45,588 nt of DNA, from sequence record OZ035804.1. One strand, written 5' to 3'. Within the stretch, counting starts at the first letter, position 1. The number at the start of each line of letters is the position of its first letter. The notes under the pieces are model-generated. The model had not been told where the DNA came from and made no database searches. It worked only from the letters and a program-made list of their open reading frames with translations. Both the position numbers and the translations under genes were made by a program. This document shows, in pieces, positions 2,982-41,159 of the stretch. The stretch is from Vectrevirus PDP21P3.

Positions 2982-3326
2982 ATGCTTAATAAATACTTCA
3001 AGCGACGCGAGTTCGCTTGCCGTTGTGGGTGCGGTACATCCACTGTTGATGCTGAGTTATTACAGGTAGTCACAGATGTGCGTGAGCACTTTGGCGTCCC
3101 TGTAGTTATTACTTCTGGACACCGCTGTGCTAAGCACAATGCTAATGTGGAAGGGGCTAAGAACTCCATGCATCTTACTGGAAAGGCTGCTGATATTAAG
3201 GTACAAGGAATTACACCTTACCGTGTATGGTCTTATCTAACAGCACGCTACCCAAATAAATATGGCATTGGGTCTTACCCTAACTTCACCCATATTGATG
3301 TACGGGATGGGTGTGCACGATGGTAG
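2982..3326 (+). CDS. endolysin, zinc peptidase M15-like (VanY/D-Ala-D-Ala carboxypeptidase fold)
   Basis: SGHRCAKHN...GAKNSMHLTGKAADI...FTHIDVRDG matches the H-x-H/D zinc-ligand pattern of M15 peptidases; start chosen at second ATG, 5 nt after GAGG (track start 2970 lacks RBS). Confidence 0.8.
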   Translation: MLNKYFKRREFACRCGCGTSTVDAELLQVVTDVREHFGVPVVITSGHRCAKHNANVEGAKNSMHLTGKAADIKVQGITPYRVWSYLTARYPNKYGIGSYPNFTHIDVRDGCARW

Positions 3327-10522: not shown

Positions 10523-10536
10523 TGACACTATAAGAG
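10513..10536 (+). promoter_or_regulatory. degenerate phage-promoter-like site
   Basis: tatCTGACACTATAAGAGAGG resembles the consensus but with two single-base deletions; intergenic, upstream of the 10605 gene. Confidence 0.3.
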
Positions 10537-10604
10537 AGGATTTAACAGGGCGTTACTTGTTAGCGCCCGATTAAGTTTATCTCAATAAACCAAATAGGTG
10601 ACTT

Positions 10605-14271: not shown

Positions 14272-14294
14272 ATTTACCGGACACTATAGGATAG
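14272..14294 (+). promoter_or_regulatory. phage RNAP promoter
   Basis: ATTTACCGGACACTATAGGATAG; +1 G at 14289 followed by 5' hairpin CCGTCggaGACGG. Confidence 0.7.
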
Positions 14295-14435
14295 CCGTCG
14301 GAGACGGGAAAGAAAGGGAAGATAAAGGATATAAAAGGAAGTAATAGGTATTAAAGGTTATATAGGTTATCTAGGAATACCTATTACCTTCTTCCTTCCT
14401 CTTATTACTACTTAGAGGAAGGGCAGATCTAGGTT

Positions 14436-18885: not shown

Positions 18886-21396
18886 ATGAAAACTATTGAT
18901 TGGAAGAAGGAAGCAGAAGGGCGAATCCTAGTGATGGATGCGGAAGCTAAAGGTCTGCTTGATGCTATCCGCTATGGTCATCGTGAAGATGTACACATCA
19001 TTTGCTGCATGGATTTGCTTACTACAGAGGAGTTCTTATTCTTTGACCCATATGAGATGCGTGACCCTGAAGCAAGAGAACACCTGAAGGAATGGGAAGG
19101 ACATCAAGATGGAACCTTGGTTGACGGTGTTAACTTCCTGAAGCATTGTGAAGCTATTGTGTCACAGAACTTCCTAGGGTATGACGGCCTTCTCTTTGAG
19201 AAAGCATTCCCTGATATTTGGAAAGGCTTTAACTATACCGAGAAGCGCGGCAAGGGCAGACTCCGTGCTGACCTGTGTCCTATCCGTGTTGTCGACACAC
19301 TGGTAATGAGTCGCCTGTTAAACCCCGACAGACGTCTTCCTCCGCAAGCTTATGCCAAGGGCATGGGTAACGTTGCCCCTCATTCAATTGAGGCGCACGG
19401 CATCCGTATAGGCCGCTATAAGCCGGAGAATGAGGACTGGTCTAAGCTAACTGACCACATGGTTCATCGTGTACGTGAGGACGTGGCGATTGGTCGTGAC
19501 CTGTTCCTGTGGTTGTACAATGGGGAATGGATGGAGCACAAACGCCGTGGCGTGAACAAACGCACTGGCCTAGGTATTGAGACAGCCTTCCACATGGAAT
19601 CCATTGTGGCGCTGGAGATGAGCCGTCAGGCCGAACGCGGATTCCGTCTGGATATCGACAAGGCCTTAGCTCGATGCGAAGAACTGGACGCCAAGATTGA
19701 TGAGACAGTCGCAGCGTTCCGTCCGCATATGCCTATGCGTATCAAGTCTAAACCTTTTAAACCGGAAGAGAAGAATGAAACCTGCCAAAAAGCAAATGAG
19801 TATGGACGAAGCAACAACATCAACGTGGTTCTCGACCCCTCACACTTTCTACATGCAGAACGCCGTGGAGATAGGAAAACTGTTTGGGCTGTCACCACTA
19901 AGTCTGGTGACTGGAGTGCTTCTGTCAAGAAAGATTTCCCTCACCTTAGAGGAAACCGTAATGATACGCCAAGCATCAAGTGGATTGGCGCTTATAGTCC
20001 AGTCACGTTTGAAGAGATTCCCTTGGGAAACCGTGACACCGTTAAGCAAGTGCTCTACGACTATGGCTGGAAAGGTGTGGAGTTCAACGACACCGAGCAA
20101 GCCTATCTTGATGAAAATGGTGTCCTACCTAAGCCTTGGAGTGGTAAGATAAATGAAAAGTCCCTTACTTTATGGCAGGAAAGAGCCGCACGTGAAGGTA
20201 AAACAGTCCCTGATTGGTGCTTGGGTATCGCTGCATGGTACATACTCGTATCCCGTCGTGGTCAGATCCTCAACCGTGGTGACGTTGAAGCCTTCAACGA
20301 GAAAGGAACGTGGCCCTCGCAGGCTGGTGTACGAAAGTGTCGTGGCCTTGTACCTGTAGCCTTTAACAAGGAGCTAGGAATCAATGCGCAGCAATACTAC
20401 GAAAGGTATGGATGTTGGCCTACGTCTGACAAAGATGATGGAGAGTGGCGTGTGCCAGGCAATGCTGTTACTATTGGTACTAATACGTTTCGTATGCGTC
20501 ATCGTAACATTGTTAATATTCCTTCCCGTGGGTTGTATCCTCTACGTGATTTATTCATAGCTAGCAAAGGTAAAATGATACTCGGATGTGATGGCGCGGG
20601 TCTTGAGCTTCGCATCTTAGCCCATTTCATGGGTGATCCTGAGTATATTGATATTGTCTTGAATGGCGATATTCACTCACACAACCAAGCGAAGGCTGGA
20701 TTGCCCTTACGTGACACTGCGAAAACATTTATCTACGCTTTTCTCTACGGGTCTGGCATACCAAACCTTGCCGCTGTATGTGGCATGACTGAAGCACAGA
20801 TGAAAGAGTGTGTCGCTCGCTTTGAAGTAGAGCTACCTCACTTAGCTAAGCTTAAGGAGGGAGTGGAATCTGCTGCTTCACAATTTGGGTACATGCACGC
20901 TGTAGATGGGCGCTGGGGTCGTGTACGTGTTAGTAATGGTGAGATTAAGATTCACACCTGTCTTAATGTACTCCTCCAGATGACCGGTTCTCTCACTATG
21001 AAGTACTCAAAAGTGAAAGCACTAGCTACCATGCGTAAAGAGGGCGTGGCTCTTGATGCTAATGGTAATCCTGCTATGCTTGTCGACTATCACGATGAGT
21101 GGCAGATGGAGGTGCCTGAAGACGAAGTGTTAGAAATTCGCTACTCTATTCCTTCCTCTGAATGGAAAGAAGAAGAGAAAAGGCAGTATCGAGACTCAGA
21201 AGGACGTATGTGGTCTGCACCTAAGATTGTGGAAGGCAACCCTAAAGAGGATGAGGAGATCACTGTACGTCGTCGTTATCATCGTGCTGGTGAGATCCTA
21301 GCTGAATCTATTACATGGGCTGGAGAATATCTCAAGTTACGCATTCGAATGGATGGGGAATATATGCTTGGGTATTCATGGGCTGAAACACACTGA
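18886..21396 (+). CDS. DNA polymerase (family A, T7 gp5-like)
   Basis: ATG after GAGG (track start 18859 is upstream of first ATG); motifs DGAGLELR and RDTAKTFIYAFLYGSG match T7 DNAP motifs A/B as remembered. Confidence 0.9.
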   Translation: MKTIDWKKEAEGRILVMDAEAKGLLDAIRYGHREDVHIICCMDLLTTEEFLFFDPYEMRDPEAREHLKEWEGHQDGTLVDGVNFLKHCEAIVSQNFLGYDGLLFEKAFPDIWKGFNYTEKRGKGRLRADLCPIRVVDTLVMSRLLNPDRRLPPQAYAKGMGNVAPHSIEAHGIRIGRYKPENEDWSKLTDHMVHRVREDVAIGRDLFLWLYNGEWMEHKRRGVNKRTGLGIETAFHMESIVALEMSRQAERGFRLDIDKALARCEELDAKIDETVAAFRPHMPMRIKSKPFKPEEKNETCQKANEYGRSNNINVVLDPSHFLHAERRGDRKTVWAVTTKSGDWSASVKKDFPHLRGNRNDTPSIKWIGAYSPVTFEEIPLGNRDTVKQVLYDYGWKGVEFNDTEQAYLDENGVLPKPWSGKINEKSLTLWQERAAREGKTVPDWCLGIAAWYILVSRRGQILNRGDVEAFNEKGTWPSQAGVRKCRGLVPVAFNKELGINAQQYYERYGCWPTSDKDDGEWRVPGNAVTIGTNTFRMRHRNIVNIPSRGLYPLRDLFIASKGKMILGCDGAGLELRILAHFMGDPEYIDIVLNGDIHSHNQAKAGLPLRDTAKTFIYAFLYGSGIPNLAAVCGMTEAQMKECVARFEVELPHLAKLKEGVESAASQFGYMHAVDGRWGRVRVSNGEIKIHTCLNVLLQMTGSLTMKYSKVKALATMRKEGVALDANGNPAMLVDYHDEWQMEVPEDEVLEIRYSIPSSEWKEEEKRQYRDSEGRMWSAPKIVEGNPKEDEEITVRRRYHRAGEILAESITWAGEYLKLRIRMDGEYMLGYSWAETH

Positions 21397-21455
21397 GTTA
21401 TACTCAAGGTCACTTATGAGTGGCCTTTATGAATAACTTAACTGGAGGAAATATA

Positions 21456-22013
21456 ATGAATGAACTGAACACTAAGATGCTCAAGAAAGTTTATAATCTT
21501 GTATATAGTATCACGGGTCTACAATTCTACCCTGTAGGCGGTGCGGTTCGTGACACCCTGTACGGAGTAACACCTAAAGACTATGATATGGTGTTGCCTG
21601 TAGGGTCTATGGCAGATTTTCAGGCGCACGAAATCATGGAAAATATCTCTGAAGAGATGGCAATTATGGGATTTAGTACCAAACTCTACCAATCATACGG
21701 TATCAATTTAGGTTATGAAATCAACCCTACCTCTTTTCAGGCTATGTTCCTTAGCTGCATGAAAGTGCAGATGCGTAATTGCCAACTTGATTTGCTTCTT
21801 TCTAAGTCTGAAACCATCCAAGATCATGTACGTAAGCACGATTGCAATATGAATATGGTGTGGTTCGATGGTAAAGATATCAAGTGGGAGCACGGCGGTG
21901 TTACTCCTTTCGTTCCTGTGTTAGAGTTCAACCCTGACGTATGTGATCGTCGCATTGCTTACATGGACAAGAAGCGCCATGAACTTATCCGTCACAAATT
22001 AATGCATCTTTGA
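21456..22013 (+). CDS. minimal nucleotidyltransferase, CCA-adding enzyme/poly(A) polymerase head-domain-like
   Basis: FYPVGGAVRDTLYGVTPKDYDMV matches the GGxVRD…D-x-D signature of the tRNA nucleotidyltransferase/poly(A) polymerase family; only ~185 aa; ATG 7 nt after GGAGG. Confidence 0.6.
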   Translation: MNELNTKMLKKVYNLVYSITGLQFYPVGGAVRDTLYGVTPKDYDMVLPVGSMADFQAHEIMENISEEMAIMGFSTKLYQSYGINLGYEINPTSFQAMFLSCMKVQMRNCQLDLLLSKSETIQDHVRKHDCNMNMVWFDGKDIKWEHGGVTPFVPVLEFNPDVCDRRIAYMDKKRHELIRHKLMHL

Positions 22014-22035
22014 TTTACCGGACACTATAGAAGGA
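22013..22035 (+). promoter_or_regulatory. phage RNAP promoter
   Basis: ATTTACCGGACACTATAGAAGGA; +1 G at 22030. Confidence 0.7.
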
Positions 22036-22099
22036 AGTCCTAGGTAATCTAGGTTTATAAGGTAGTGTAGGTAATTAAGTAAATATAGGAGATATAAAT

Positions 22100-22477
22100 A
22101 TGTCTATGGTAACTACTCTGGTATTCGTGGCTCAATACTTTCGTGGTCTGGCTAATAAGTTCAAGTCCAAGGCTATCAAAGCTATTGAGTCTCGCATCGA
22201 GGCAGTACAGGCAGAGCAAGTTAAAGTTGAAGAACATCGTAGTTCTCAAATGATTGACTGCCATAACCGCTACTATGCATCTCGTGATGACCTTAATGCA
22301 CGCCAAGTCAAAGAGGTTGAAGAGATGCTGGCACGTCACCAGCAAGAGCGCGACAGTCTGAAAGCTGAATTTGAAGAGAACAAGGCATCCATCGCCCTTG
22401 TACATCAAGCCGCATCTGACAGCCTGAAGAAAGAGATTGTTATGCTGGAAATTGAGTTAGACAACCTGACCAAATAA
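22100..22477 (+). CDS. hypothetical coiled-coil protein
   Basis: 125 aa, charged heptad-like sequence. Confidence 0.5.
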   Translation: MSMVTTLVFVAQYFRGLANKFKSKAIKAIESRIEAVQAEQVKVEEHRSSQMIDCHNRYYASRDDLNARQVKEVEEMLARHQQERDSLKAEFEENKASIALVHQAASDSLKKEIVMLEIELDNLTK

Positions 22478-22498
22478 TTACTGGACACTATAGAACAA
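22476..22498 (+). promoter_or_regulatory. phage RNAP promoter
   Basis: aaTTACTGGACACTATAGAACAA; +1 G at 22493, followed by hairpin and the shared TGATTGTGTAGTG leader motif. Confidence 0.65.
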
Positions 22499-22554
22499 TA
22501 GGTCGGCTTAGTTCGGCCTATGATTGTGTAGTGTAACAATAGGAGACTAAATAA

Positions 22555-23361
22555 ATGGCACGTGGTGATTTTGATTTTGGTGCTCAGGTTACTAAAGCTG
22601 AAGGTAAGGTTTTTAAGAACCCTGAAGTTGGTGATCATGAAGCAGTAATCTCTGGCATCATTCATGTGGGTTCCTTCCAAGATATCTTTAAGAAAGGTAA
22701 TACCACTGAAGTTAAGAAGCCAGCAAACTTTGTTCTTGTTAAGATTGTACTGATGGGTGACGATGACAAGAACGAAGATGATTCTCGCATGGAACAATGG
22801 ATGGCTGTGCCTCTGAAGTCTGGTGATAAGGCAACACTAACTAAGTTCCTGAATGCAGTTGACCCTAAAGAATTGCTGGGTGGCTTCGATGATTTTATCG
22901 GTGAATGTCTGACTGCAACTATGGTTGGCTCTGGCGACAAGAATGATGATGGTACTTTCAAGTATGTTAACTGGAAAGGCTTTGGTGGTATGCCGGATAA
23001 GCTGAAGAAACTTGTCATTGCTCAGGTTGAAGAAGAGGGTCTGTCTATGACAGGTCATATTACCTTCGACAAGCTGACCAAAGAAATCCTTGATGATATT
23101 CCTGCTAACTTGGTGCGTCAATACTTCCTGAACGAGACGCCTCGTGGCAAGAACCTGTCTGTTGCTGGCTCTCACGTAGAAGCAATCATCAAAGCTGCTC
23201 GTGAAGAAGACCCAGAGTGGAAGAAAGCTAAGAAGAAAGATGAAGAGGATGCCACTCCAGCTAATCGTAGATCTCTGGATACCGGCGAGTCTGTTCCACA
23301 GGAAGTACCTGAAGCGGAGGACAACCCTGCACCTGAAATGGATGAAGACGCGGAATACTAA
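22555..23361 (+). CDS. putative ssDNA-binding protein (gp2.5-like) with acidic C-terminal tail
   Basis: 268 aa; C-terminus …EAEDNPAPEMDEDAEY (acidic tail with terminal aromatic residue, as in T7 gp2.5); functional assignment is inference. Confidence 0.5.
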   Translation: MARGDFDFGAQVTKAEGKVFKNPEVGDHEAVISGIIHVGSFQDIFKKGNTTEVKKPANFVLVKIVLMGDDDKNEDDSRMEQWMAVPLKSGDKATLTKFLNAVDPKELLGGFDDFIGECLTATMVGSGDKNDDGTFKYVNWKGFGGMPDKLKKLVIAQVEEEGLSMTGHITFDKLTKEILDDIPANLVRQYFLNETPRGKNLSVAGSHVEAIIKAAREEDPEWKKAKKKDEEDATPANRRSLDTGESVPQEVPEAEDNPAPEMDEDAEY

Positions 23362-23370
23362 GGAGGGCGG

Positions 23371-23589
23371 ATGAAAGTACAAATTGTAACTCTGCATTGC
23401 AAGAAAGGCATCACCACGCTTGGCGGTGGCACTTTCCACTCCTTCTCCGAAGGAGATACATACTCTGACCTGCACTACATCTGGCGCGATGGGCAGCACG
23501 TGGTGAACTACAGCGACCCAGCTACGGGGAAACGCCACGGCGTATCGCTTCCGGCGCATGACATTGCTCAGGTGAACACAGTTTTATAA
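23371..23589 (+). CDS. hypothetical protein
   Basis: 72 aa, RBS AAGGAGGG. Confidence 0.45.
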   Translation: MKVQIVTLHCKKGITTLGGGTFHSFSEGDTYSDLHYIWRDGQHVVNYSDPATGKRHGVSLPAHDIAQVNTVL

Positions 23590-23590
23590 A

Positions 23591-23606
23591 GTCTCACGTG
23601 TGAGAC
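23591..23606 (+). repeat. conserved palindrome copy e
   Basis: GTCTCACGTGTGAGAC. Confidence 0.8.
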
Positions 23607-23621
23607 AAATCGGTGTCCGGT

Positions 23622-23644
23622 ATTTACTGGACACTATAGAAGAG
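23622..23644 (+). promoter_or_regulatory. phage RNAP promoter (consensus copy)
   Basis: ATTTACTGGACACTATAGAAGAG; +1 G at 23639. Confidence 0.7.
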
Positions 23645-23694
23645 AAGAATTTTAATCGGCGATAATGCCATAACCAACAAAAGGAGAATTTAAT

Positions 23695-24066
23695 ATGTTC
23701 AAGATTGAAACTATCGTAAACCGTGTTGTTAAAGGTGCTGCTCTGGTATCCGTTGAGTCTTTCATTATCGTCGATGAAGCTGATCAACTGGTAGCTGGTA
23801 CTAAAGCTTACGATACCCGTGAAGAAGCTCAGGCTAAGATTGACAGCATGGGTAACTTCGCTGCTGGTCTGGAGTTCGCTCGTGCTTGCTTCCCTGAGCA
23901 GGCTGACAAAGCACAGATTGGTAAGGCTAATATCGTAGCTGAATATCTGGATTGGGTTGCTGCTGGTAAACCAGTGAAAGAAGTTAAGGCTGCTGAAGAA
24001 GCTGAAGCTCCAGCAGAAGAAGTAGCTGCACCGGAAACTCCGGTAAGCGAAGAGGAAGAATTTTGA
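23695..24066 (+). CDS. probably highly expressed small protein with acidic C-terminal tail ending in Phe
   Basis: 123 aa; strong RBS AAAAGGAGA; codon choice (GGT, CGT, GCT, CTG, AAA) resembles the capsid gene; own promoter upstream and Tphi-like terminator downstream; C-terminus …APETPVSEEEEF. Confidence 0.7.
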   Translation: MFKIETIVNRVVKGAALVSVESFIIVDEADQLVAGTKAYDTREEAQAKIDSMGNFAAGLEFARACFPEQADKAQIGKANIVAEYLDWVAAGKPVKEVKAAEEAEAPAEEVAAPETPVSEEEEF

Positions 24067-24123
24067 TAATAGCAGGTGTTGCCTCTGTTAGTCCTGGTTG
24101 ACTATCACGCTCACCTCATCTAA

Positions 24124-24158
24124 TGCCCTGTCTGCCTTAGTGTAGGCAGGGTCTTTTG
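24124..24158 (+). terminator. phage Tphi-like terminator hairpin
   Basis: GC-rich hairpin (CTGCC…GGCAG/CCCTG…CAGGG) followed by TCTTTTG; sequence-similar to the element after the capsid gene. Confidence 0.5.
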
Positions 24159-24183
24159 CGTAATAGTTATTGGAGAATGAATT

Positions 24184-24471
24184 ATGCCGACTATTGAATC
24201 TCGTTTGTACTTGGAGACATTACACTATTATAGCCAGCTACACATGTCTGGTATAATGCGTGTTAAGGTTCTTCTAGATGGTGAAGTGTTTCACATAGAA
24301 GAAATCAATGTGGCGATGCAGCCTTACAGAAGACCTGTTGATGTACTCCTTGATATCCTGAAGGAGTGGACATGCAACTCGAAGAATACTTGCGAACAAC
24401 CCTTGCTGTTGACGAAGAAAGTCCTAGTGGCCTCGTGTGGAAAGTTAGGGCAGCGAGAAGAGTTCGTGTAG
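24184..24471 (+). CDS. hypothetical protein
   Basis: 95 aa ORF; its last ~100 nt overlap the HNH-AP2 gene in another frame. Confidence 0.35.
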   Translation: MPTIESRLYLETLHYYSQLHMSGIMRVKVLLDGEVFHIEEINVAMQPYRRPVDVLLDILKEWTCNSKNTCEQPLLLTKKVLVASCGKLGQREEFV

Positions 24472-24842
24472 GTCAGCCAGCACTTGCTTGCTTAAAACCA
24501 GATGGCTACTACCAAAGTACCGTCATGGGTAAGAAGCTGTACGCTCACCGCGTAGTGTTCTTCTTGACGCATGGGTACTGGCCTGTCAATGTGGATCACC
24601 TCGATGGTAATCGTCAGAACAACAAGCCGTATAACCTAGCAGATGTGGATGCAGCAGAGAATGCAGAGAATCGTATGCACTTCGGTTGCTATCTGACTAA
24701 GCAAGGTTGGCGTGTTCGTATCCAAGTTAAAGGTATTAGGAGAGATATTGGCACTTACCCTACCAAGGAAGAGGCCATATCTGCCTATACCAAGGCAAAG
24801 CTAGAACTTCACCACTCTCCACGTTATAAGGAGGTGGTATGA
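24372..24842 (+). CDS. HNH endonuclease with AP2-like DNA-binding domain
   Basis: HRVVFFLTHGYWPVNVDHLDGNRQNN (HNH motif) plus GWRVRIQVKGIRRDIGTYPTKEEAISAY (AP2-type); ATG 5 nt after AAGGAG. Confidence 0.7.
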   Translation: MQLEEYLRTTLAVDEESPSGLVWKVRAARRVRVGQPALACLKPDGYYQSTVMGKKLYAHRVVFFLTHGYWPVNVDHLDGNRQNNKPYNLADVDAAENAENRMHFGCYLTKQGWRVRIQVKGIRRDIGTYPTKEEAISAYTKAKLELHHSPRYKEVV

Positions 24843-25867
24843 GTAGGCCTTTATTTAACTTTGGTGCAGAAGTTTCTGAAGATAACAACCTGATAGTGTG
24901 GCCAACTGAAGGTAATAGAATCGCTTTAATAGATGCTGATATGCTACCTTATATTGTAGGGTACACAATCAGTGACATGACTTATGTACGAGCCACAACT
25001 CGTGTTAAGTCAGGACAAGTCCCATCAATCAAAGATACACCTGAGTGTAAGCAAGCATGTGACCGTGTGAACTCCTTGCTTAACTCTTGGGTGTATGCAG
25101 CAGAGTGCGATGCAGCTAAGTTATTCATGACGAAATCAGAAGCTAACTTCCGTGTTCGCCTAGCATTCACCAAGCCTTACAAAGGTCAACGTAAGACTGA
25201 GAAGCCTCCATTCTTCTATGAATTGCGAGAGCATCTCTTAGAGGTTCATGGTGCAATCTTGGCAGATGGAGAAGAAGCGGATGACCTCATGAGCATCACA
25301 CAATGGGATAGCCACCGCCGCTTCCAGCAAGATACAGGTAACGAGTTCCCTATCGGTAGTCCAGAGCATAAAGCATTCTCTGACACTTGCATCGTTTCCT
25401 TGGATAAGGATTTGATGATTGTTCCCGGTTGGCATCTACAGCCGGGAGGTGAGAAGAAATGGGTAGAGCCTATGGGTTGGCTTGAGCTACGCCGCAAGGC
25501 TAATGGTCAAGTGAAAGACCTTAAAGGTGCTGGCCTCATGTTCCATTATGCACAGATGATTATCGGTGATGATATTGATAATTACGCTGGCATACCCGGA
25601 CGTGGTGCTAAATACGCCTATGATCTTCTCAAAGATTGTAAGACAGAGAAAGAGTTGTACATGGCAGTGCTTGGTGCATATAAGGCTAAGTTCGGACATG
25701 GACAAGTTAAGATTAAGAATTACCGAGGTGGTTATCGTATCGGCAAGGCTTTTGACCTGATGCTTGAATGTGGTCGCCTAGCACACATGGCAAGATTCAA
25801 GGGTGATATATGGCGAGCCGATAAGAACCCAATCTTGTGGGGAGATGACGATGGATGGATGCATTGA
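24839..25867 (+). CDS. 5'-3' exonuclease (T7 gp6-like)
   Basis: EEADDLMSITQW, VSLDKDLMIVPG and IGDDIDNYAGIPGRG correspond to T7 gp6 motifs as remembered. Confidence 0.85.
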   Translation: MSRPLFNFGAEVSEDNNLIVWPTEGNRIALIDADMLPYIVGYTISDMTYVRATTRVKSGQVPSIKDTPECKQACDRVNSLLNSWVYAAECDAAKLFMTKSEANFRVRLAFTKPYKGQRKTEKPPFFYELREHLLEVHGAILADGEEADDLMSITQWDSHRRFQQDTGNEFPIGSPEHKAFSDTCIVSLDKDLMIVPGWHLQPGGEKKWVEPMGWLELRRKANGQVKDLKGAGLMFHYAQMIIGDDIDNYAGIPGRGAKYAYDLLKDCKTEKELYMAVLGAYKAKFGHGQVKIKNYRGGYRIGKAFDLMLECGRLAHMARFKGDIWRADKNPILWGDDDGWMH

Positions 25868-26288
25868 CCATGGGTGTAAGGGTTATGGTATAGGTTATGC
25901 TACTTCCTATTATAAAGGCCGTGACGGTAAGAAGAAGTTTACCACTAAACACAGAGTAGTATACTGTAAACACCATAACATTCACCCTGAAGATTTGCCT
26001 AAAGATATTGTTATTAGGCACAAATGTGATAATGCACGTTGTATTAATCCTTTACACTTAGAGTCTGGTACACATCGAGATAACATGAAAGATATGGCTG
26101 TCCGTGGTAGAGCCTACAAAGGTGGAATGCCGGGAGAAAAGAATGGCAGATGTGTGCTTTCTGATTTACAAGTAGCAGAGTTACGAGCCTTACGTGCTAA
26201 AGGGTTTACTTGTAAAGCTCTAGCTGAACGGTATGGCATAGGTATTACTCAAGTATCTAGACTAGCAAGAGGAGAGCAACGTGCGTAA
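25851..26288 (+). CDS. HNH endonuclease with C-terminal HTH
   Basis: HRVVYCKHH…RHKCDNARCINPLHLESGTHRDN (HNH) and C-terminal helix-turn-helix-like ALAERYGIGITQVSRLARG; start overlaps exonuclease 3' end. Confidence 0.7.
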   Translation: MDGCIDHGCKGYGIGYATSYYKGRDGKKKFTTKHRVVYCKHHNIHPEDLPKDIVIRHKCDNARCINPLHLESGTHRDNMKDMAVRGRAYKGGMPGEKNGRCVLSDLQVAELRALRAKGFTCKALAERYGIGITQVSRLARGEQRA

Positions 26289-26691
26289 GATGAAGCAATC
26301 TGAACTTGGTGAAGTTCGGGATATACTTTGTGAAAGACAAGGTTGGCGTTGCCCTATTTGTGGAGGTCATTTAAAACTTATCTCTAAAGCGAATAGAGTC
26401 GTTGACCATTCACACGATAATGTAGGTGCAGTCCGTGGTGTATTATGCCGTGGGTGCAATGGAGGTATCGGCAAGATAGAAGCGTATGCACAGTCGTATT
26501 GTAAGGCTGGCAATAATACGCTTGAGGTTATCAAAGTTCTACGTAATCTTGCGGACTACTTAGAACTCCATCGCACACCACAGACAGAGTGGATTTATTA
26601 CAAACATCAAACGGAGGCAGAGAAGCGCGAGGCTAAGAACCGTAAGGCACGCCTTGCTTATGCAAGAAAGAAGGAGGTTAAAGTTGGGTAA
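26281..26691 (+). CDS. endonuclease VII-like Holliday junction resolvase
   Basis: CPICGGHL…VVDHSHDN…RGVLCRGCNGGIG matches the T4 endo VII family pattern; GTG start 7 nt after AGGAG (alternative ATG at 26290). Confidence 0.7.
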   Translation: MRKMKQSELGEVRDILCERQGWRCPICGGHLKLISKANRVVDHSHDNVGAVRGVLCRGCNGGIGKIEAYAQSYCKAGNNTLEVIKVLRNLADYLELHRTPQTEWIYYKHQTEAEKREAKNRKARLAYARKKEVKVG

Positions 26692-27691
26692 GCTTCGCAG
26701 CTTGTACAAAGACTCCGAGGTGCTTGATGCAATCGAGCAAGCTACCGACGAGAAAGGTAATGTTAACTATAATGAGATGGCGAAGATTCTATCTAGCCAC
26801 CCTGTGGGTAAGAAGATCACCCGTCAACTTGCTCGCTATTGGCATGGTCAATTCAAGAAGACCAAGAAGAATGGTGATTACTACCAGACTCTTCTGCAAG
26901 AGGATAAGCGTATCAAAGAAGAGCGTAAGCTCAGGACTCCTGACCGCTACGAGGATTTGGCTATTGTACCATTGCCTGACTCGCCTCATCGAAGTGTACT
27001 GGTAATCCCTGATACTCATGCACCTTATGAGCACCCCGATACCTTAGAGTTCCTTGCAGCAGTGGCAGCACGTTATCGACCAGACACAGTGGTACATCTT
27101 GGAGATGAGGCAGATAAACATGCCCTGTCATTCCATGATTCGGATCCAAATTTGGACAGTGCTGGCATGGAGTTAGAGAAAGCTCGTGTCTTCATGCACA
27201 AGTTGCACAAGATGTTTCCTGTGATGCGCCTGTGTCACTCTAATCACGGCTCTATGCACTTCCGTAAGGCAAGCGCCAAGGGTATTCCAGTGCAATATCT
27301 TCGTACCTACCGAGAAGTCTTCTTCCCGCAGGGAGGTGGCGACCAGTGGGATTGGCAGCATACGCATGTACTTGAGTTGCCGAATGGCGAACAGGTGGCA
27401 TTCAAGCATCAACCTGCTGGCTCTGTCCTAGCAGATGCAGCGCATGAGCGTATGAATCTTGTGTGTGGTCACTTGCATGGTAAGATGTCTGTGGAGTACG
27501 CACGTAATACACATGAACAGTATTGGGCTATGCAGGGTGGCTGCTTAATTGATGAGTCATCCCGTGCATTTGCCTATGGGCGTGAGTCTAAATACAAGCC
27601 AGCATTAGGTTGTGTGGTGATTCTAGATGGTGTGCCGCACATTGTCCCGATGCAGACCAATAGTGACAATCGCTGGATTGGTAAGATTTAG
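26684..27691 (+). CDS. calcineurin-like metallophosphoesterase
   Basis: VIPDTHAP…HLGDEADKHA…SNHGS…GHLHG = metallophosphoesterase motifs I-V; probable TTG start 6 nt after AAGGAGG (track start 26654 lacks RBS). Confidence 0.65.
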   Translation: MGKLRSLYKDSEVLDAIEQATDEKGNVNYNEMAKILSSHPVGKKITRQLARYWHGQFKKTKKNGDYYQTLLQEDKRIKEERKLRTPDRYEDLAIVPLPDSPHRSVLVIPDTHAPYEHPDTLEFLAAVAARYRPDTVVHLGDEADKHALSFHDSDPNLDSAGMELEKARVFMHKLHKMFPVMRLCHSNHGSMHFRKASAKGIPVQYLRTYREVFFPQGGGDQWDWQHTHVLELPNGEQVAFKHQPAGSVLADAAHERMNLVCGHLHGKMSVEYARNTHEQYWAMQGGCLIDESSRAFAYGRESKYKPALGCVVILDGVPHIVPMQTNSDNRWIGKI

Positions 27692-27708
27692 TTGACACTA
27701 TAGAACAA
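27686..27708 (+). promoter_or_regulatory. phage RNAP promoter (SP6-like variant)
   Basis: ATTTAGTTGACACTATAGAACAA, one mismatch from canonical SP6 promoter core as remembered; followed by hairpin and TGATTGTGTAGTG motif. Confidence 0.55.
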
Positions 27709-27759
27709 AGGGCAGGTACTAGCTTGCCCTTGATTGTGTAGTGAATGGAGGAATTAATT

Positions 27760-28230
27760 ATGTCAAAGATTGATATTGGCGAATACGTCGTACGCCGTGC
27801 AGCTTACCGAGATGCCAACTGGAATAAACTGTGTGAAAGCTTAAACAAGAAACCAGATGAGGTATTCAAAGTATCCCGTGCAGAACCTAATTATAACTCT
27901 ATCATGTTAGAAGGTGTGGAGAAGCGCGAATGGTATGCACCTTACTTCAAGGTTGTTGACTCATTGCAAGGTGAAGATCCTGACACGTTGGACAACAATA
28001 TGGTTACTAAACCCAAACACTACGAGTTCTTCGATGGCGTAGAAGCAATCACTATCATTGCCCGCAGCATGACTGAGAAGCAATTCGCTGGGTACTGCAT
28101 GGGTAATGCTTTGAAGTATCGTCTGCGTGCAGGTAAGAAGTTCAATACTGAAGAAGACCTGAAGAAAGCAGACTACTACAAAGAATTATTCCATAAGCAT
28201 CGTCACGAATGTATTGATGAGGATATTTAA
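27760..28230 (+). CDS. conserved phage protein of unknown function
   Basis: 156 aa; ATG after GGAGGA; pattern KPKHYEFF…GNALKYRLRAGKK…ADYY resembles a widespread phage DUF (unverified, from memory). Confidence 0.55.
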   Translation: MSKIDIGEYVVRRAAYRDANWNKLCESLNKKPDEVFKVSRAEPNYNSIMLEGVEKREWYAPYFKVVDSLQGEDPDTLDNNMVTKPKHYEFFDGVEAITIIARSMTEKQFAGYCMGNALKYRLRAGKKFNTEEDLKKADYYKELFHKHRHECIDEDI

Positions 28231-32951: not shown

Positions 32952-32974
32952 ATTTACTGGACACTATAGAAGGG
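32952..32974 (+). promoter_or_regulatory. phage RNAP promoter (capsid promoter)
   Basis: ATTTACTGGACACTATAGAAGGG; +1 G at 32969 followed by 5' hairpin GGGAGAaatgTCTCCC. Confidence 0.75.
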
Positions 32975-33022
32975 AGAAATGTCTCCCTAAATTATCAATT
33001 TGATTTATAAGGAGGTTTATTA

Positions 33023-38147: not shown

Positions 38148-41095
38148 TGGCAATTGAGCGACAAGCAGTACAAGGCCTGCCACAAGTGCAGGCCACTTCT
38201 CCTAATGTCATGACCTTTGCACCTCAGCAAGTTGGAGGTGTGGAGGCTGGCGTAGCTTCTACCTCCGGTAGTCGATTTATCGAAGACCTTATTCGAGCAG
38301 CCAGTAGTGTAGCTGATGTTACCACGGGTATCCTTAATCAGAAGATTGAGGAGGATAAGGTTGTTCAAATGGAACGGGCATATAATGGATTAATGCCTTC
38401 TGAGGATGCAACTCGTGGTGGCGCTCGTGCTAACATGCTTGTCAAAGCTCAACTGCTAGCTAATGATGAAGCAGCACGAATGAAAGACATGGCTACTCGT
38501 TTCCAAGGAACAGATGACGAGTGGACACAACTCATGGTTGACTCTCGTAATGAGATGCAGAATAAACTGTTCCAGCAATACCCTGAGTTGCAAGGTGACA
38601 AAGATACTATGCGTATGGTCACTAATGTCTTCCAAGAACAGCAGCCTCAGATTTGGGCTACACGAACCCAGCATAAACTTGACCGCGAACAAGCAGACCG
38701 TGAGGATACCTTTGACGGGCGAGTGGCTTCTACTTGGGATTCTAGTATTGACCCCGAAGCTTCTGGTTATGCCCTACAGGAGCGAATCCGCGAGGGATTT
38801 ACTCAAGGACTATTACCTGAGCAGATGCATAAGAAGCTGGTAGAGCGAGCTATTTCACTTGCTCAGGGTGGTGATATTAGCATGGCTGAAGCCTTGAAGT
38901 ACGTGAAGGACGATAAGGGTGTTTCTGTCTATGCTAAGAATCCGCAGCTTATCACAGCTATCACTAATGGTAATGCAGTTTGGGCTAGGAATAATGTTGC
39001 TGATGTGACTCGCATGTCTTTTGAAGTCAAAGAGTCCTATCTTGCAGGTGACTTGACGGATGAAGAATTACTGGAGCGAGCACAGCACATTAATAGCCTG
39101 ACAGGAAACTCTGTCTTCTCTAATCCAGAACTAGAAGCACTGATGCGCCAACGAGCTAAGCAGAATGCAGAGCTAGGTGCAATGCAGGATATGCGACGTG
39201 AACTTTACTCTGATCGCATGACTGGCTTCCAAGGTAAGACAGATAAAGAGAAGAAAGCCTACATTGATGTTATCAAACAGGATAGCCAACTATATGCAGA
39301 CCAGCAAATCAAACAACGTGGCTTGGACCCTTACAGTCAAGAGGCTGAAGCTATTCGTGGTGCAGTGGAAGTGCAGCGCCTGCAATTCATGAACTCCAAA
39401 GGCTTAGTGGATGACACCTTTGAGTCTCGTATCAAAGCCATGGAGTCTATGCTATCACCTGAGCACTTCGCTAAAGGAGAACCACAGGAGTTAATGACTA
39501 TTCGTCAGTTGTGGGAACAGTTACCAGAAGAAAGCCGAGGTGTCTTTGGTGATACGGTGAATGGCTATATGGATAACTACAACACTGCATTACAAATGGG
39601 AGAGACGCCCTTGCAGGCTGCAAGGTTTGCCCGTGAAGCACAGCAGAAATTCTCTCGTACTGAGAAGGAAACCAAGAAGTTCAACTCAGCTATTGGAGAT
39701 GCACTGGATGAGGTATCGGGTGCTGGCTGGTTTGATGGTAAAACCGAAGTGTCTGACTTAGGTAAAGCTATTGCAGAAGAAGAGTTACGAGCTAAGGCCA
39801 ATATGCTGTGGTCTAGCGGTATGCGTAACATGGATTCCATCAAGAAGGCTTTAATTACTTGGGGCAATAAACGCTACACTCAGTCAGAGGATGCAAAGAC
39901 TTCCGGTGGTTATTTCATTAAAGGTGATTACACTTCTGCATCTGACATGCTTATGTCTGTTGGGAAAGGTGTAAACCCTACCGATGTACCTCTGGCGCTT
40001 GGTAGGTATGTAGAAACACAAATGCCAGAATTGAAGAAGGAACTTCAAGAGTGGGAAACTAAGGATGATGTATACATTGATTACAATGAACAGAAAGGTA
40101 CTTTCGTGATTCGTGCTGGTGCAGCAGGTCGCCCTCTTTCTGGAGTAATCCCTGTCACTTCTTTAGATACCACTTCACTGCTAGACTCTGCCTATCAGAA
40201 GAAAGTAGAAGAACGAGATAAAGGTGAATATGTTCACCCATATCGTACAGATATCGGTGCACAAGAACCCATGCCAGCTAAGCCAACTGCCAAGGATATT
40301 GGTAAATTTGGACTAGCTAATTTCCTCATGTCTTCTGCCTTTGCTTCTGGTGAGAATCTACCTTCTAACTTCGAGATTAACTATAGAGGCAATATGCAAC
40401 AATTCTATGACAAGCTAGCTATGGATGAGAATGGCGATAAGCTGGGCTTCAACAAAGCCACAGGAACCTTCACACCGTACAAAGATGCACATGGCGAGTC
40501 GGTAGGCTACGGTCACTTCCTTACGGAAGAAGAAAAGAGAAATGGGTACATTAAGATTGGCGACGAACTGGTTCCGTATCGCGGCTCTATGTCTCAGCTC
40601 ACTGAGAGTAAGGCCCGTGCTCTTATGGAACAAGATGCCAAGAAGCATGTACCTCCAACTCGTGATTGGAAAATCCCATTCGACCAGATGCATCCGGCAC
40701 AGCAGCGCGGTTTAATGGATTTAACCTATAACTTAGGTAAAGGTGGAATCCAGAATGCACCGCGTGCTCTTGCTGCATTCAAGGCAGGTAAGCTTACAGA
40801 AGGCTTTATCGAAATGCTGGGTACTGCATCCAGTGAAGGTAAGCGTATTCCTGGTTTACTGAAGCGACGCGCTGAGGCTTACAATATGGCATCTGCCGGT
40901 GGTGTACCTAAGATTACCGAAGTAGAGACTCGTGAAGATGGGTCTATGTGGGTTAAGTTCGGCGGACCTATGCCAGCAGGTTCTGTATCTGCATGGACTC
41001 ATAAACGTATTGGCGCTGATGGCTGGTATCAGGTTTATGAGGCTGCACCTACCAAGTTAGCTAAAGGCTCTAAGGTAGGTAAAGTTAAGTTGTAG
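38147..41095 (+). CDS. internal virion protein B with C-terminal lysozyme-like domain
   Basis: 982 aa; C-terminal region contains GYGHFLTEEE…MDLTYNLG reminiscent of T4/lambda-type lysozyme core. Confidence 0.75.
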   Translation: MAIERQAVQGLPQVQATSPNVMTFAPQQVGGVEAGVASTSGSRFIEDLIRAASSVADVTTGILNQKIEEDKVVQMERAYNGLMPSEDATRGGARANMLVKAQLLANDEAARMKDMATRFQGTDDEWTQLMVDSRNEMQNKLFQQYPELQGDKDTMRMVTNVFQEQQPQIWATRTQHKLDREQADREDTFDGRVASTWDSSIDPEASGYALQERIREGFTQGLLPEQMHKKLVERAISLAQGGDISMAEALKYVKDDKGVSVYAKNPQLITAITNGNAVWARNNVADVTRMSFEVKESYLAGDLTDEELLERAQHINSLTGNSVFSNPELEALMRQRAKQNAELGAMQDMRRELYSDRMTGFQGKTDKEKKAYIDVIKQDSQLYADQQIKQRGLDPYSQEAEAIRGAVEVQRLQFMNSKGLVDDTFESRIKAMESMLSPEHFAKGEPQELMTIRQLWEQLPEESRGVFGDTVNGYMDNYNTALQMGETPLQAARFAREAQQKFSRTEKETKKFNSAIGDALDEVSGAGWFDGKTEVSDLGKAIAEEELRAKANMLWSSGMRNMDSIKKALITWGNKRYTQSEDAKTSGGYFIKGDYTSASDMLMSVGKGVNPTDVPLALGRYVETQMPELKKELQEWETKDDVYIDYNEQKGTFVIRAGAAGRPLSGVIPVTSLDTTSLLDSAYQKKVEERDKGEYVHPYRTDIGAQEPMPAKPTAKDIGKFGLANFLMSSAFASGENLPSNFEINYRGNMQQFYDKLAMDENGDKLGFNKATGTFTPYKDAHGESVGYGHFLTEEEKRNGYIKIGDELVPYRGSMSQLTESKARALMEQDAKKHVPPTRDWKIPFDQMHPAQQRGLMDLTYNLGKGGIQNAPRALAAFKAGKLTEGFIEMLGTASSEGKRIPGLLKRRAEAYNMASAGGVPKITEVETREDGSMWVKFGGPMPAGSVSAWTHKRIGADGWYQVYEAAPTKLAKGSKVGKVKL

Positions 41096-41108
41096 TACCT
41101 AACTCAAG

Positions 41109-41132
41109 GCTTGTCTCACATGTGAGACAGGT
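41109..41132 (+). repeat. conserved palindrome copy f (gcTTGTCTCACATGTGAGACAggt)
   Basis: between internal virion protein genes B and C. Confidence 0.8.
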
Positions 41133-41159
41133 CTTTATGATAGGCACTATGGAGGAACT

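Follow-up and report, generated by a model that had tools for sequence, protein, structure and literature searches.

The 13-mer shared by two leaders of Vectrevirus PDP21P3, a K1E/SP6-like phage, is part of an RNA element that is most likely a compact relative of the RNase III mRNA-cutting sites of phage T7, a variant of a known device rather than a new type of regulator. The window analysed here (45,588 nt) is the whole genome of this phage. Rather than a free linear motif, the 13-mer forms the 3' side of an extended hairpin, with the promoter core plus GAACAA on the 5' side; folding, conservation and covariation show that this hairpin, with its promoter-derived 5' strand, is a real RNA structure. 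By analogy with T7, we infer that RNase III cleaves it, with a probability of roughly 0.6. The sequence-only reading that flagged the pair had proposed a cis-regulatory leader element, such as a translational operator or a protein or sRNA site. What stands of this proposal is a conserved cis-acting RNA element common to both leaders and kept by relatives; the operator and the protein or sRNA site gained no specific support, and the anatomy is better explained by an RNase III-type processing site.

The layout of SP6 promoters, with CACTATA upstream of +1, is well established. The window contains 19 matches to SP6-type promoters for 5.05 expected, and an alignment of 12-13 of these sites places CACTATA at -7 to -1 and the start of the RNA at GAACAA, so that the earlier statement that the transcripts begin with CACTATAGAACA was wrong. 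Both flagged sites (22476-22493 and 27686-27703) carry the conserved -17 to +1 sequence, ATTTAnnnGACACTATA followed by G, which is repeated genome-wide on the coding strand. The features of the two leaders are as follows.

22476..22492, + strand: SP6-type phage RNA polymerase promoter (-17 to -1) of the gene 16 homologue; AATTACTGGACACTATA followed by GAACAA aligns with about 12 other promoters of the window
22521..22533, + strand: flagged 13-mer in the gene 16 leader (folding, sequence comparison)
22541..22557, + strand: Shine-Dalgarno sequence AGGAG (22541-45) and ATG (22555-57) of the K1E gene 16 homologue (sequence)
27686..27702, + strand: SP6-type promoter (-17 to -1) of the nucleotide kinase gene, the K1E gene 23 homologue (promoter alignment)
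27731..27743, + strand: second copy of the 13-mer, in the gene 23 leader, with the same roles as the first (folding, sequence comparison)
27747..27762, + strand: Shine-Dalgarno sequence GGAGG (27747-51) and ATG (27760-62) of the nucleotide kinase gene (sequence)

The +1 of the gene 16 promoter is G22493, and the promoter overlaps the TAA stop codon (22475-22477) of the upstream gene 15 homologue; the +1 of the kinase promoter is G27703, and the TAG stop codon (27689-91) of a metallophosphoesterase gene lies inside that promoter. None of genes 19-22 has its own promoter, and the sole terminator-like site is at 24125-24152, so read-through RNA must exist. Hairpins close to the 5' end are also found behind several other promoters of the window, e.g. 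GGGAGAaaugUCUCCC at 32969 and CCGUCggaGACGG at 14289. The ribosome binding site and ATG previously assigned to each leader are both present. The gene 16 homologue encodes a 268-aa product (phrog_862) with an acidic C-terminal tail; it was from this tail alone that the gene at 22555 had been called SSB-like, a label that finds no support in Pfam, PDB or NCBIfam, where the product matches no RNA- or DNA-binding family.

The 13-mer TGATTGTGTAGTG is indeed exact at 22521-22533 and 27731-27743, and no further copy occurs in the window at up to 2 mismatches. When this genome is shuffled, some 20 exact 13-mer pairs are expected, so such a pair would be unremarkable by itself. Both copies, however, begin at +29 from the +1 G (22493 and 27703). 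When leaders are compared in register from +1, the flagged promoter pair gives a run of 13 identities and all other pairs among the 13 promoters give at most 6. The remarkable feature is this in-register identity at a common offset from +1, not exactness. Coincidence, or neutral paralogy in which a duplicated leader retained a functionless 13-mer, could appeal to the number of pairs that chance alone provides at this genome size, but it is effectively refuted by the shared register, by conservation of the element in phages of seven host genera (about 109 records), by strong covariation and by a frequency of 0.005 instances per shuffled genome.

The hairpin that had been described before each 13-mer is real, and it is the upper part of a longer structure:

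22485..22534, + strand: extended hairpin of the gene 16 leader, complete only in read-through RNA (folding, covariation)
27696..27743, + strand: extended hairpin of the gene 23 leader, in read-through RNA (folding)

In the gene 16 leader, the lower stem pairs 22485-22492 (ACACUAUA) with 22527-22534 (UGUAGUGU); above it, G22493 stands opposite G22526, AA 22494-95 pairs with UU 22524-25, and CA 22496-97 and GA 22522-23 form a 2x2 loop below a 9-bp upper stem (22498-22506 with 22513-22521) closed by the loop 22507-22512. The gene 23 leader has the same architecture, with CACUAUA (27696-27702) paired with UGUAGUG (27737-27743), G27703 opposite G27736, AA 27704-05 paired with UU 27734-35, CA 27706-07 opposite GA 27732-33, and a 10-bp upper stem (27708-27717 with 27722-27731) around the loop 27718-27721. 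The predicted free energies are -23.6 kcal/mol (z -4.54) and -26.5 kcal/mol (z -5.71), respectively, each reached by 0/200 shuffles. Both hairpins thus comprise a lower stem of 7-8 bp, the G.G mismatch, AA:UU, the CA/GA loop and an upper stem of 9-10 bp, i.e. 19-20 pairs or about 22 bp-equivalents, close to two helical turns. They fold only when upstream sequence is included, RNA from +1 giving the inner hairpin only. Within the 13-mer, the U is the closing base of the upper stem, GA forms the 3' half of the internal loop, UU is paired with AA, the next G faces the +1 G as a mismatch, and UGUAGUG is paired with CACUAUA of the promoter, one of these pairs being G.U. The two copies are identical because part of the 13-mer complements the invariant promoter core and the rest (UGAUUGU) is the invariant internal-loop module.

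Other roles for these leaders were considered and rejected. An intrinsic (class I) terminator is not indicated at either hairpin, since no U-run follows (the next sequences are UAACAAUAGG and AAUGGAGG) and the terminator listing is empty there. A divergent minus-strand promoter was discarded on account of a -17 to -8 region that is not promoter-like, and sequestration of the ribosome binding site by the 13-mer in promoter-initiated RNA is unsupported (z -1.2 and -2.6). Rfam 15 returned no relevant match, whether for the whole window at the gathering threshold or for 21900-27900 at E<=1, and the GenBank records of SP6, K1E, BigMira and phiEa100 annotate only CDS at these places.

The same class of hairpin occurs elsewhere in the genome. 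A custom scan for the architecture found 3 instances on the + strand and 0 on the - strand, the third being the following.

10534..10583, + strand: hairpin of the form AA-CA-GGGCGUUA..UAGCGCCC-GA-UU, whose lower stem is not promoter sequence (fold, scan)

It lies entirely 3' of a promoter +1 (10533) and upstream of the gene at 10605, and an orthologue with compensatory changes is present in a related contig (L024). These two hairpins and one in the early region of phage BigMira (1669-1721) keep the GAACA/GAUUG or AACA/GAUU module on different yet complementary lower stems, which argues that the lower stem is structural. The presence of the module at 10534-10583 and in BigMira also does away with the suggestion that it privately co-regulates the genes at 22555 (gene 16 homologue) and 27760 (kinase). 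The gene 15 leader (+1 at 22030) was rejected as a member of the class, with only 5-7 bp of promoter-core pairing, large loops and no AACA/GAUU module.

Among relatives, the 13-mer had been proposed for a search of equivalent leaders, and the element is retained there. The 41 unique GAACAA promoter sites gathered without conditioning on the 13-mer include 36 in which the promoter core pairs with a downstream arm; this arm abuts the inner hairpin every time, although the latter ranges from about 20 to about 70 nt. One alignment (A1) has 94.7% of its cells paired, compared with 31-46% when the partners are slid, and 5 pairs with compensatory changes; another (A3), with 40 distinct sequences from Escherichia, Salmonella, Klebsiella and Proteus phages, has 94.2% paired and 13 compensatory pairs, and 0/500 shuffles match the observed values on any measure. 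The architecture recurs on the coding strand only, and in two copies the lower stem consists of sequence other than the promoter. In Proteus phages, the arms read UGUGGUG or UAUGGUG and pairing is preserved only through G.U. The constraint on the distal stem is not strict, since several natural variants (TATCGTG, TAAAGTG and TATACTG) each break one lower-stem pair. The GAACA/GAUUG module is confined to Vectrevirus, Zindervirus and Acadevirus and is absent from T7 and from Erwinia phage phiEa100.

A feature acting at the DNA level could also be imagined, either an inverted repeat or cruciform that affects promoter use or replication, or a mobile promoter-stem-loop cassette whose 3' arm is the relic of an inverted duplication. 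The element is a near-palindrome that contains the promoter; in some contigs (L028, L040 and L091) the gene 16 leader bears a gene 23-type inner stem, which suggests cassette exchange, and in Klebsiella phage K1-ULIP33 the cassette sits before an inserted HNH endonuclease gene. Such an explanation is nevertheless very unlikely. The pairing relies heavily on G.U, which becomes a mismatched A.C on the opposite strand and is weak in DNA; the + strand RNA fold is the more stable in 21/21 cases, and a covariance model of the SP6-like element (R2) scores 75.9 bits on the + strand vs 17.2 bits on the - strand. In addition, all instances lie on the coding strand, the minus-strand "half promoter" is devoid of the -17 to -8 specificity region, and the conservation in three genera, accompanied by compensatory changes, points to selection at the RNA level.

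Published descriptions of RNase III substrates include a length of two helical turns, an internal loop and a 3' hairpin that acts protectively (PMC1540722). In the flagged leaders, an interrupted helix of about two turns exists on the transcribed strand only with the promoter core included, and the internal loop between the stems, a trait that limits cuts to one strand, is the invariant CA/GA 2x2 loop plus G.G, which is smaller than the T7 loops. The proximal-box rule asks for G-C at position 1, A-U or U-A at 2, A-U at 3 and no G-C at 4 (PMC1540722). In a register set by analogy with R1.1, the gene 23 leader matches this optimum (G27710-C27729, A27709-U27730, A27708-U27731, and A27707 opposite G27732), and the gene 16 leader reads G-C, A-U, U-A and A-U, with U-A at position 3 instead of the preferred A-U. 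From cut to loop, where at least 11 bp are called for, the gene 23 leader has 10 bp plus the mismatch pair (11), and the upper stem of the gene 16 leader is 9 bp. The distal-box pairs count against the RNase III reading, as they differ from the UA/UG optimum (G.U, G-C and U.G near the loop in the gene 23 leader).

The T7 motif AAGG(U/G)C...G(G/C)CCUUUAU/GAUU compares with AAGGGC...GCCCUU GAUUG and UAGGUC...GGCCUAU GAUUG in the window. GenBank records of T7 list promoters and not R sites; the cleavage coordinates used here are those that Dunn & Studier reportedly gave in 1983, and their one check is that they fall consistently 2-3 nt 3' of the upper stems. A covariance model that had T7 R0.3, R0.5, R1, R1.1, R1.3 and R4.7 as its sole input finds the gene 23 leader as best match in a 6-kb region with filters off (13.9 bits, E 0.15) and does not report the gene 16 leader, compared with 27-47 bits for canonical sites in the same genome. 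Two of the latter are:

21394..21444, + strand: predicted canonical T7-like RNase III site, ACUCAAGGUC...GGCCUUUAUGAAUAAC, directly 3' of the DNA polymerase stop codon (T7 model, 46.8 bits, E 2.5e-8)
41093..41152, + strand: second predicted canonical T7-like RNase III site, AACUCAAGGCUUG...CAGGUCUUUAUGAUAGG, before a 1102-aa gene at 41160 (T7 model, 27 bits, E 0.0025)

Canonical sites of this type, at 27-47 bits, are found in this genome and in relatives, and their matches to the T7 model predict that this phage uses RNase III-type sites. When T7 was searched in turn with the R2 model, no T7 site was matched. In the searchable literature, we found no cleavage data for any SP6-like phage and no account of RNase III sites, or of the motif itself, in these phages; the original SP6 and K1-5 genome papers lay outside the search, so that an earlier description is possible.

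The invariance of UGAUUGU and GAACAA across genera, unpaired G.G, C.A and A.G included, would suit a specific protein-binding motif equally well, and to that extent counts against RNase III. A sequence-specific RNA-binding protein, from the phage or the host, could act on the GAACA/GAUUG loop to repress or activate translation of the next gene, with gene 6, gene 16 and gene 23 as a small regulon; this is a refined version of the operator proposed by the sequence-only reading. Besides the invariant bases, the position of the element, 5-12 nt upstream of a Shine-Dalgarno sequence in every instance, speaks for such an operator, and the weak score against the T7 model leaves room for another partner. 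We consider it unlikely, given that there is no candidate protein, the gene 16 product included, that canonical RNase III sites take equivalent positions before ribosome binding sites in the same genomes, and that the element does not sequester the ribosome binding site in promoter-initiated RNA. Moreover, SP6 gene 6 and BigMira gene 10 are preceded at the orthologous position by a different long interrupted hairpin, which suggests that structure and not a sequence motif is recognized. It is also quite unlikely that the GAACA/GAUUG hairpin, rather than being an RNase III site, is what a dedicated RNA-binding factor recognizes, whether this factor is encoded by the phage or is a dsRNA-binding protein of the host. 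Such a putative factor could tell read-through from promoter-initiated RNA, because the promoter-derived lower stem exists only in the former, and would act as a post-transcriptional switch on gene 6, on the homologue of gene 16 (a putative SSB) and on the gene for the nucleotide kinase.

Each flagged leader is thus a dual-use sequence. As DNA, GACACTATA followed by GAACAA serves as SP6-type promoter and initially transcribed sequence; in RNA from polymerases started upstream, CACUAUAGAACAA forms the 5' strand of the hairpin and the 13-mer its 3' strand. Under the RNase III reading, the host enzyme would cut this read-through polycistronic RNA inside UGAUUG, about 25-32 nt before the start codon, with a predicted 3'-strand cut near 22523/22524-22524/22525 (+/-2 nt) in the gene 16 leader and near 27734/27735 in the gene 23 leader. 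The gene 15 or gene 22 message would retain the hairpin at its 3' end, as a possible protection against 3' exonucleases, and the downstream message would be freed with a short unstructured leader. Locally initiated RNA is devoid of the CACUAUA strand; it retains the upper hairpin alone, close to its triphosphate 5' end, and would probably be cut poorly if at all. Transcripts of the two kinds would then differ in ends and fates, as at T7 phi6.5/R6.5 and phi13/R13.

The hairpins might instead be passive and never cut, the upper one protecting the 5' end of promoter-initiated mRNA and the full one acting in read-through RNA as a 3' exonuclease barrier or cistron insulator. Promoter-initiated RNA has a single unpaired 5' nucleotide once AA:UU is formed, and other promoters of the window (32969, 14289) also precede 5'-proximal hairpins, like the T7 phi10 leader. 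This explanation has a small chance of being right: it does not account for the invariant loop bases, for the GAUU 3' flank and its likeness to the flank of T7 cleavage sites, or for a helix of about two interrupted turns instead of a simple strong stem, and a 3' barrier that comes with neither cleavage nor a terminator cannot create a 3' end, as no U-run follows.

The SP6/K1E group includes widely used therapy candidates and is the source of SP6 polymerase. If RNase III processing is confirmed, one short sequence would be read twice, as a DNA promoter and as half of an RNA processing hairpin, and this double constraint would explain both the unusual GAACAA start instead of GAAGRG and a leader motif frozen across phage genera. 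The T7 model, in which RNase III shapes polycistronic mRNAs, would then also hold for this group, and a second, compact class of candidate RNase III sites would be defined. In practice, an SP6-type promoter that starts with GAACAA would introduce a processing or structure signal wherever transcription already arrives from upstream. No new field would be opened, T7 having already supplied the concept.

Several known systems invite comparison. In phage T4, the RegA and gp32 targets are translational operators, and PeSL are promoter-stem-loop cassettes. As in T4, a short cis element is common to several phage leaders and a promoter plus stem-loop is repeated as a cassette; however, the element here is a helix with an internal loop, unlike an AU-rich linear operator that covers the start codon, it has no known binding protein, and there is no evidence of gene shuffling beyond hints of inner-stem exchange between the two leaders. 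Stabilizer hairpins at the 5' end are known on phage and bacterial mRNAs (T7 phi10 leader, ompA-type), and promoter-initiated RNA likewise has a stable hairpin close to its triphosphate 5' end. Such hairpins are not known to need conserved loop bases or promoter complementarity, unlike the flagged elements.

The early-type T7 sites R0.3, R0.5, R1.1, R1.3 and R4.7 share with the flagged elements a hairpin of about two turns, a variable lower stem and a position before the ribosome binding site, an upper stem that starts A-U, A-U, G-C, G-C (AAGGNC/GNCCUU) and a 3' flank ending in U GAUU. Their true homologues in this genome are those at 21394 and 41093. The T7 sites differ from the flagged leaders in their internal loop, about 4 nt (ACUC) opposite about 5 nt (UAUGA) in T7 and 2x2 (CA/GA) plus G.G here, and the flagged leaders, at 13.9 bits or below threshold, have their own invariant GAACA/GAUUG module. 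T7 also offers a precedent for a promoter within a hairpin (PMC6938266). At R6.5/phi6.5 and R13/phi13 (also R3.8/phi3.8), where the RNase III site and a late promoter overlap, cleavage is experimentally established, whereas here it is predicted; the whole 23-nt T7 promoter is apical, between arms of other sequence, whereas here the lower stem takes its 5' strand from the promoter core itself (-7 to +4), and the GC-rich upper hairpin is separate and falls wholly within the transcribed leader. In both cases, a phage-polymerase promoter is embedded in a long hairpin of a polycistronic transcript, the complete hairpin exists only in RNA arriving from upstream, and the cut, known in T7 and predicted here, falls a few to about 30 nt past the local start and shortly before the next ribosome binding site.

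Over the 7 kb queried, the genome shares about 92-95% identity with K1E-like Escherichia phages (Molineuxvirinae, SP6 group). A scan of the window found about 12-13 plus-strand sites with GACACTATAG, each preceded by ATTTAnnn, and these sites are SP6-type phage RNA polymerase promoters. The sequence-only reading was right to place promoters at 22476 and 27686, which are positions -17 of two of them, but it had both transcripts start at CACTATAGAACA. Since SP6-type transcripts begin at the G that follows TATA, CACTATA is promoter -7 to -1, and both RNAs begin with GAACAA (22493 and 27703). Three phage promoters (+1 at 2243, 14289, and 22030) have WAGGTW repeats (TAGGTTAACCTAGGTTATATAGGTA and the like) clustered a short way downstream (2284-2303, 14345-14363, and 22041-22068), which may be origin or binding-site repeats; in Proteus phage BigMira (6753) and in other contigs, arrays of this kind come after the post-polymerase promoter. 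Downstream of the capsid-gene promoter, a hairpin from +4, GGGAGAaatgTCTCCC (32969-32990), parallels the 5' stem-loop in the leader of T7 phi10.

The first of the two leaders precedes the homologue of K1E gene 16 (22555-23361, 268 aa, phrog_862), a gene of unknown function, and the second precedes the gene 23 nucleotide kinase. The gene 16 product had been called SSB-like; its C-terminal tail is acidic and closes with an aromatic residue (..PEMDEDAEY), as is characteristic of single-strand DNA-binding proteins of the T7 gp2.5 type, and the SSB assignment finds no supporting match in Pfam, PDB, or NCBIfam. Both leaders carry the reported 13-mer exactly (22521-22533 and 27731-27743), its first base at +29 each time, and the window holds no further copy even with 2 mismatches; folding also bears out the hairpins ahead of it, of 9 and 10 bp. 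Coincidence was considered as the source of the shared leader. Exact repeats of 13 nt are not rare in themselves, with about 20 pairs per shuffled genome. In register from the promoter, the run of identity is 13 for this promoter pair versus at most 6 in every other pair, and the observation is far from chance.

In the promoter alignment of the window, genes 19-22 lack promoters, and gene 15 transcripts continue directly into the gene 16 promoter. A strong terminator-like hairpin after gene 18 (GCCCTGTCTGCC..GGCAGGGT, then CTTTTG; 24125-24152) is the sole terminator-like site that the scan found between the promoter at 23639 and 27703. Read-through RNA must therefore exist, and RNA begun at an earlier promoter was mimicked by adding 17 nt of upstream sequence before folding. 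Both regions then form a single long interrupted hairpin, in which CACUAUA/UGUAGUG is followed by the +1 G facing a G, AA/UU, a CA/GA 2x2 loop, and an inner hairpin of 9-10 bp. The folding energies are -23.6 and -26.5 kcal/mol (z -4.5 and -5.7; equal folding in 0 of 200 shuffles). Folded from +1, the leaders form the small hairpin alone, and the 13-mer is essentially unpaired. The extended hairpin thus has the promoter core and the initially transcribed GAACAA as its 5' strand and the 13-mer as its 3' strand. This pairing explains the identity of the 13-mer between leaders that differ in their inner hairpins. The proposal of a shared cis-regulatory leader was right in spirit but wrong in taking the 13-mer for a linear motif. 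No Rfam family matches. A terminator function is excluded, as no U-run follows the hairpins.

Conservation was examined by scanning IMG/VR with GACACTATAGAACAA, a pattern free of the 13-mer, and by adding loci from K1E, SP6, BigMira, and phiEa100 (Erwinia), as well as leaders of Klebsiella and Proteus phages. In minimum-energy folds, the promoter core is paired with the downstream arm at 36 of 41 unique GAACAA promoter sites. Inner hairpins differ in sequence from site to site, and in size they range from about 20 nt up to a branched insert of 55-70 nt, SP6 having a long branched insert at both leaders; whatever the insert size, (C)CU(A)UGAUUGUAUAGUG follows it immediately in all cases. The check proposed with the sequence-only reading, a search of equivalent leaders in relatives, thus favours a conserved element. 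TGATTGT is invariant among these leaders; for the remainder of the arm the consensus is ATAGTG, which is exactly complementary to CACTAT. The window arm has a G at one consensus position, which makes a U.G pair, and the Proteus phage arms (UGUGGUG or UAUGGUG) keep all seven pairs solely via G.U wobble. The gene 23 leader occurs in about 109 records of phages whose hosts are Escherichia, Salmonella, Klebsiella, Proteus, Pectobacterium, Citrobacter, and Raoultella. The gene 16 leaders of K1E (2320-2440) and SP6 (13112-13215) carry about 90 additional nt between the 13-mer and the RBS, with a terminator-like hairpin, CCCGATACCGTATCGGGCTTTCT, inside; this insert is missing from the window.

Among 21 short-form leaders, 94.7% of pair cells hold standard pairs, versus 31-46% after partners were shifted by 1-3 columns, and five pairs show changes on both sides. 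A model built from these leaders (R2) gave 55 matches in 43 SP6-like loci; the 40 distinct sequences have 94.2% of cells paired and double changes at 13 of 19 pairs, in an alignment that is model-fitted and hence biased toward the structure, and 0 of 500 shuffles reached the observed value on any measure. The promoter strand of the lower stem cannot covary. Lower stems that lack promoter sequence do covary, namely those of BigMira 1669-1721, of a third hairpin in the window, and of the orthologue of the latter in a relative's contig (L024). The third hairpin was found by a custom scan requiring AACA, an adjoining inner stem of at least 6 bp, GATT, and an outer stem of at least 6 bp:

10534-10583, + strand, third AA-CA/GA-UU hairpin

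The scan found 3 sites on the plus strand of the window, against 0.005 per shuffled genome, and none on its minus strand; SP6 and BigMira have 2 each, and T7 and phiEa100 none. The third hairpin lies entirely downstream of an atypical promoter (+1 at 10533, start AGAGAG), ahead of a 294-aa gene at 10605 and upstream of the RNA polymerase gene; at the orthologous place, SP6 (2366-2413) and BigMira (3034-3081) have a different long interrupted hairpin. The BigMira GAACA/GAUUG copy at 1669-1721 (GAUAGGUUA-G-AA-CA-stem-GA-UU-G-UAACUUAUC) is situated in the early region with no phage promoter adjoining it, and its lower stem differs in sequence and is still complementary, which shows that the module does not depend on the promoter.

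In Klebsiella phage K1-ULIP33 (150-365), the promoter-hairpin cassette stands ahead of an inserted HNH homing endonuclease gene, and several contigs (L028, L040, L091) have a gene 23-type inner stem in the gene 16 leader; both arrangements hint at recombination between or at cassettes. A DNA-level palindrome or a mobile cassette was among the explanations considered. In all 21 cases compared, the plus-strand RNA folds more stably than the complementary strand (means -20.6 versus -13.1 kcal/mol), and the GAACA/GAUUG hairpin belongs to the coding strand as an RNA element.

Substrates of E. coli RNase III span about two helical turns, with internal loops that limit cuts to one strand, and their proximal box consists of G-C, A-U or U-A, A-U, and then a non-GC pair (PMC1540722). 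The hairpins of the gene 16 and gene 23 leaders have the length and loop of such substrates in their read-through form only, and their distal box mismatches. Their upper stems start with A-U, A-U, G-C, G-C, the same order as in T7 R1.1. T7 sites were aligned at cleavage coordinates attributed to Dunn and Studier (1983), and each presumed cut falls 2-3 nt beyond an upper stem, as expected. The T7 sites so aligned read ..CUCAAGG(U/G)C..G(G/C)CCUUUAU↓GAUU.. (arrow, presumed cut), and their window counterparts ..AACAAAGGGC..GCCCUU GAUUG.. and ..AACAAUAGGUC..GGCCUAU GAUUG... A covariance model built exclusively from six T7 sites predicted two further elements:

21394-21444, + strand, predicted canonical T7-like RNase III site (46.8 bits)
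41093-41152, + strand, predicted canonical T7-like RNase III site (27 bits)

Both read ACUCAAGG...CUUUAUGA, with orthologous matches in SP6 (12224, 30550), K1E, BigMira (30688, 2753), and phiEa100 (33363); this phage group therefore carries near-identical T7 RNase III site sequences, which are annotated in none of the GenBank records inspected. Canonical sites and leader hairpins alike lie immediately upstream of a Shine-Dalgarno sequence. Between the first canonical site and the gene 15 promoter is an inserted ORF (21420-22013, probable start ATG 21456), missing in K1E; its match to the nucleotidyltransferase head domain PolyA_pol is weak and falls below the cut-off (22.5 bits versus 23; E 1.6e-4).

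The T7 model scored the gene 23 leader at 13.9 bits (E 0.15), as the top match of its 6-kb region and in the correct register, and did not report the gene 16 leader; searching T7 with R2 found no T7 site. The internal loops of T7 sites are also much larger, and the invariant loop bases could equally indicate a protein-binding motif, as in a protein operator, which was weighed as an alternative. Because of these differences and the distal-box mismatch, the leader hairpins are treated as a distinct compact class. A passive stabiliser hairpin was considered too; RNase III cleavage is the most likely candidate function. The cut would fall within UGAUUG, near 22523-22525 and 27734/27735 (±2 nt), if placed as in R1.1. 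The published minimum cut-to-loop distance for RNase III is 11 bp, and promoter-initiated RNA, with its 10-bp stem, would presumably escape the enzyme.

Phages of Vectrevirus, Zindervirus, and Acadevirus conserve this element, and its best description is a candidate RNase III processing hairpin with an embedded promoter, T7-like yet compact. In T7 itself, the promoters phi6.5 and phi13 are enclosed in the R6.5 and R13 hairpins, and at R3.8/phi3.8 and R6.5/phi6.5 transcription starts a short distance upstream of the cut (PMC6938266).
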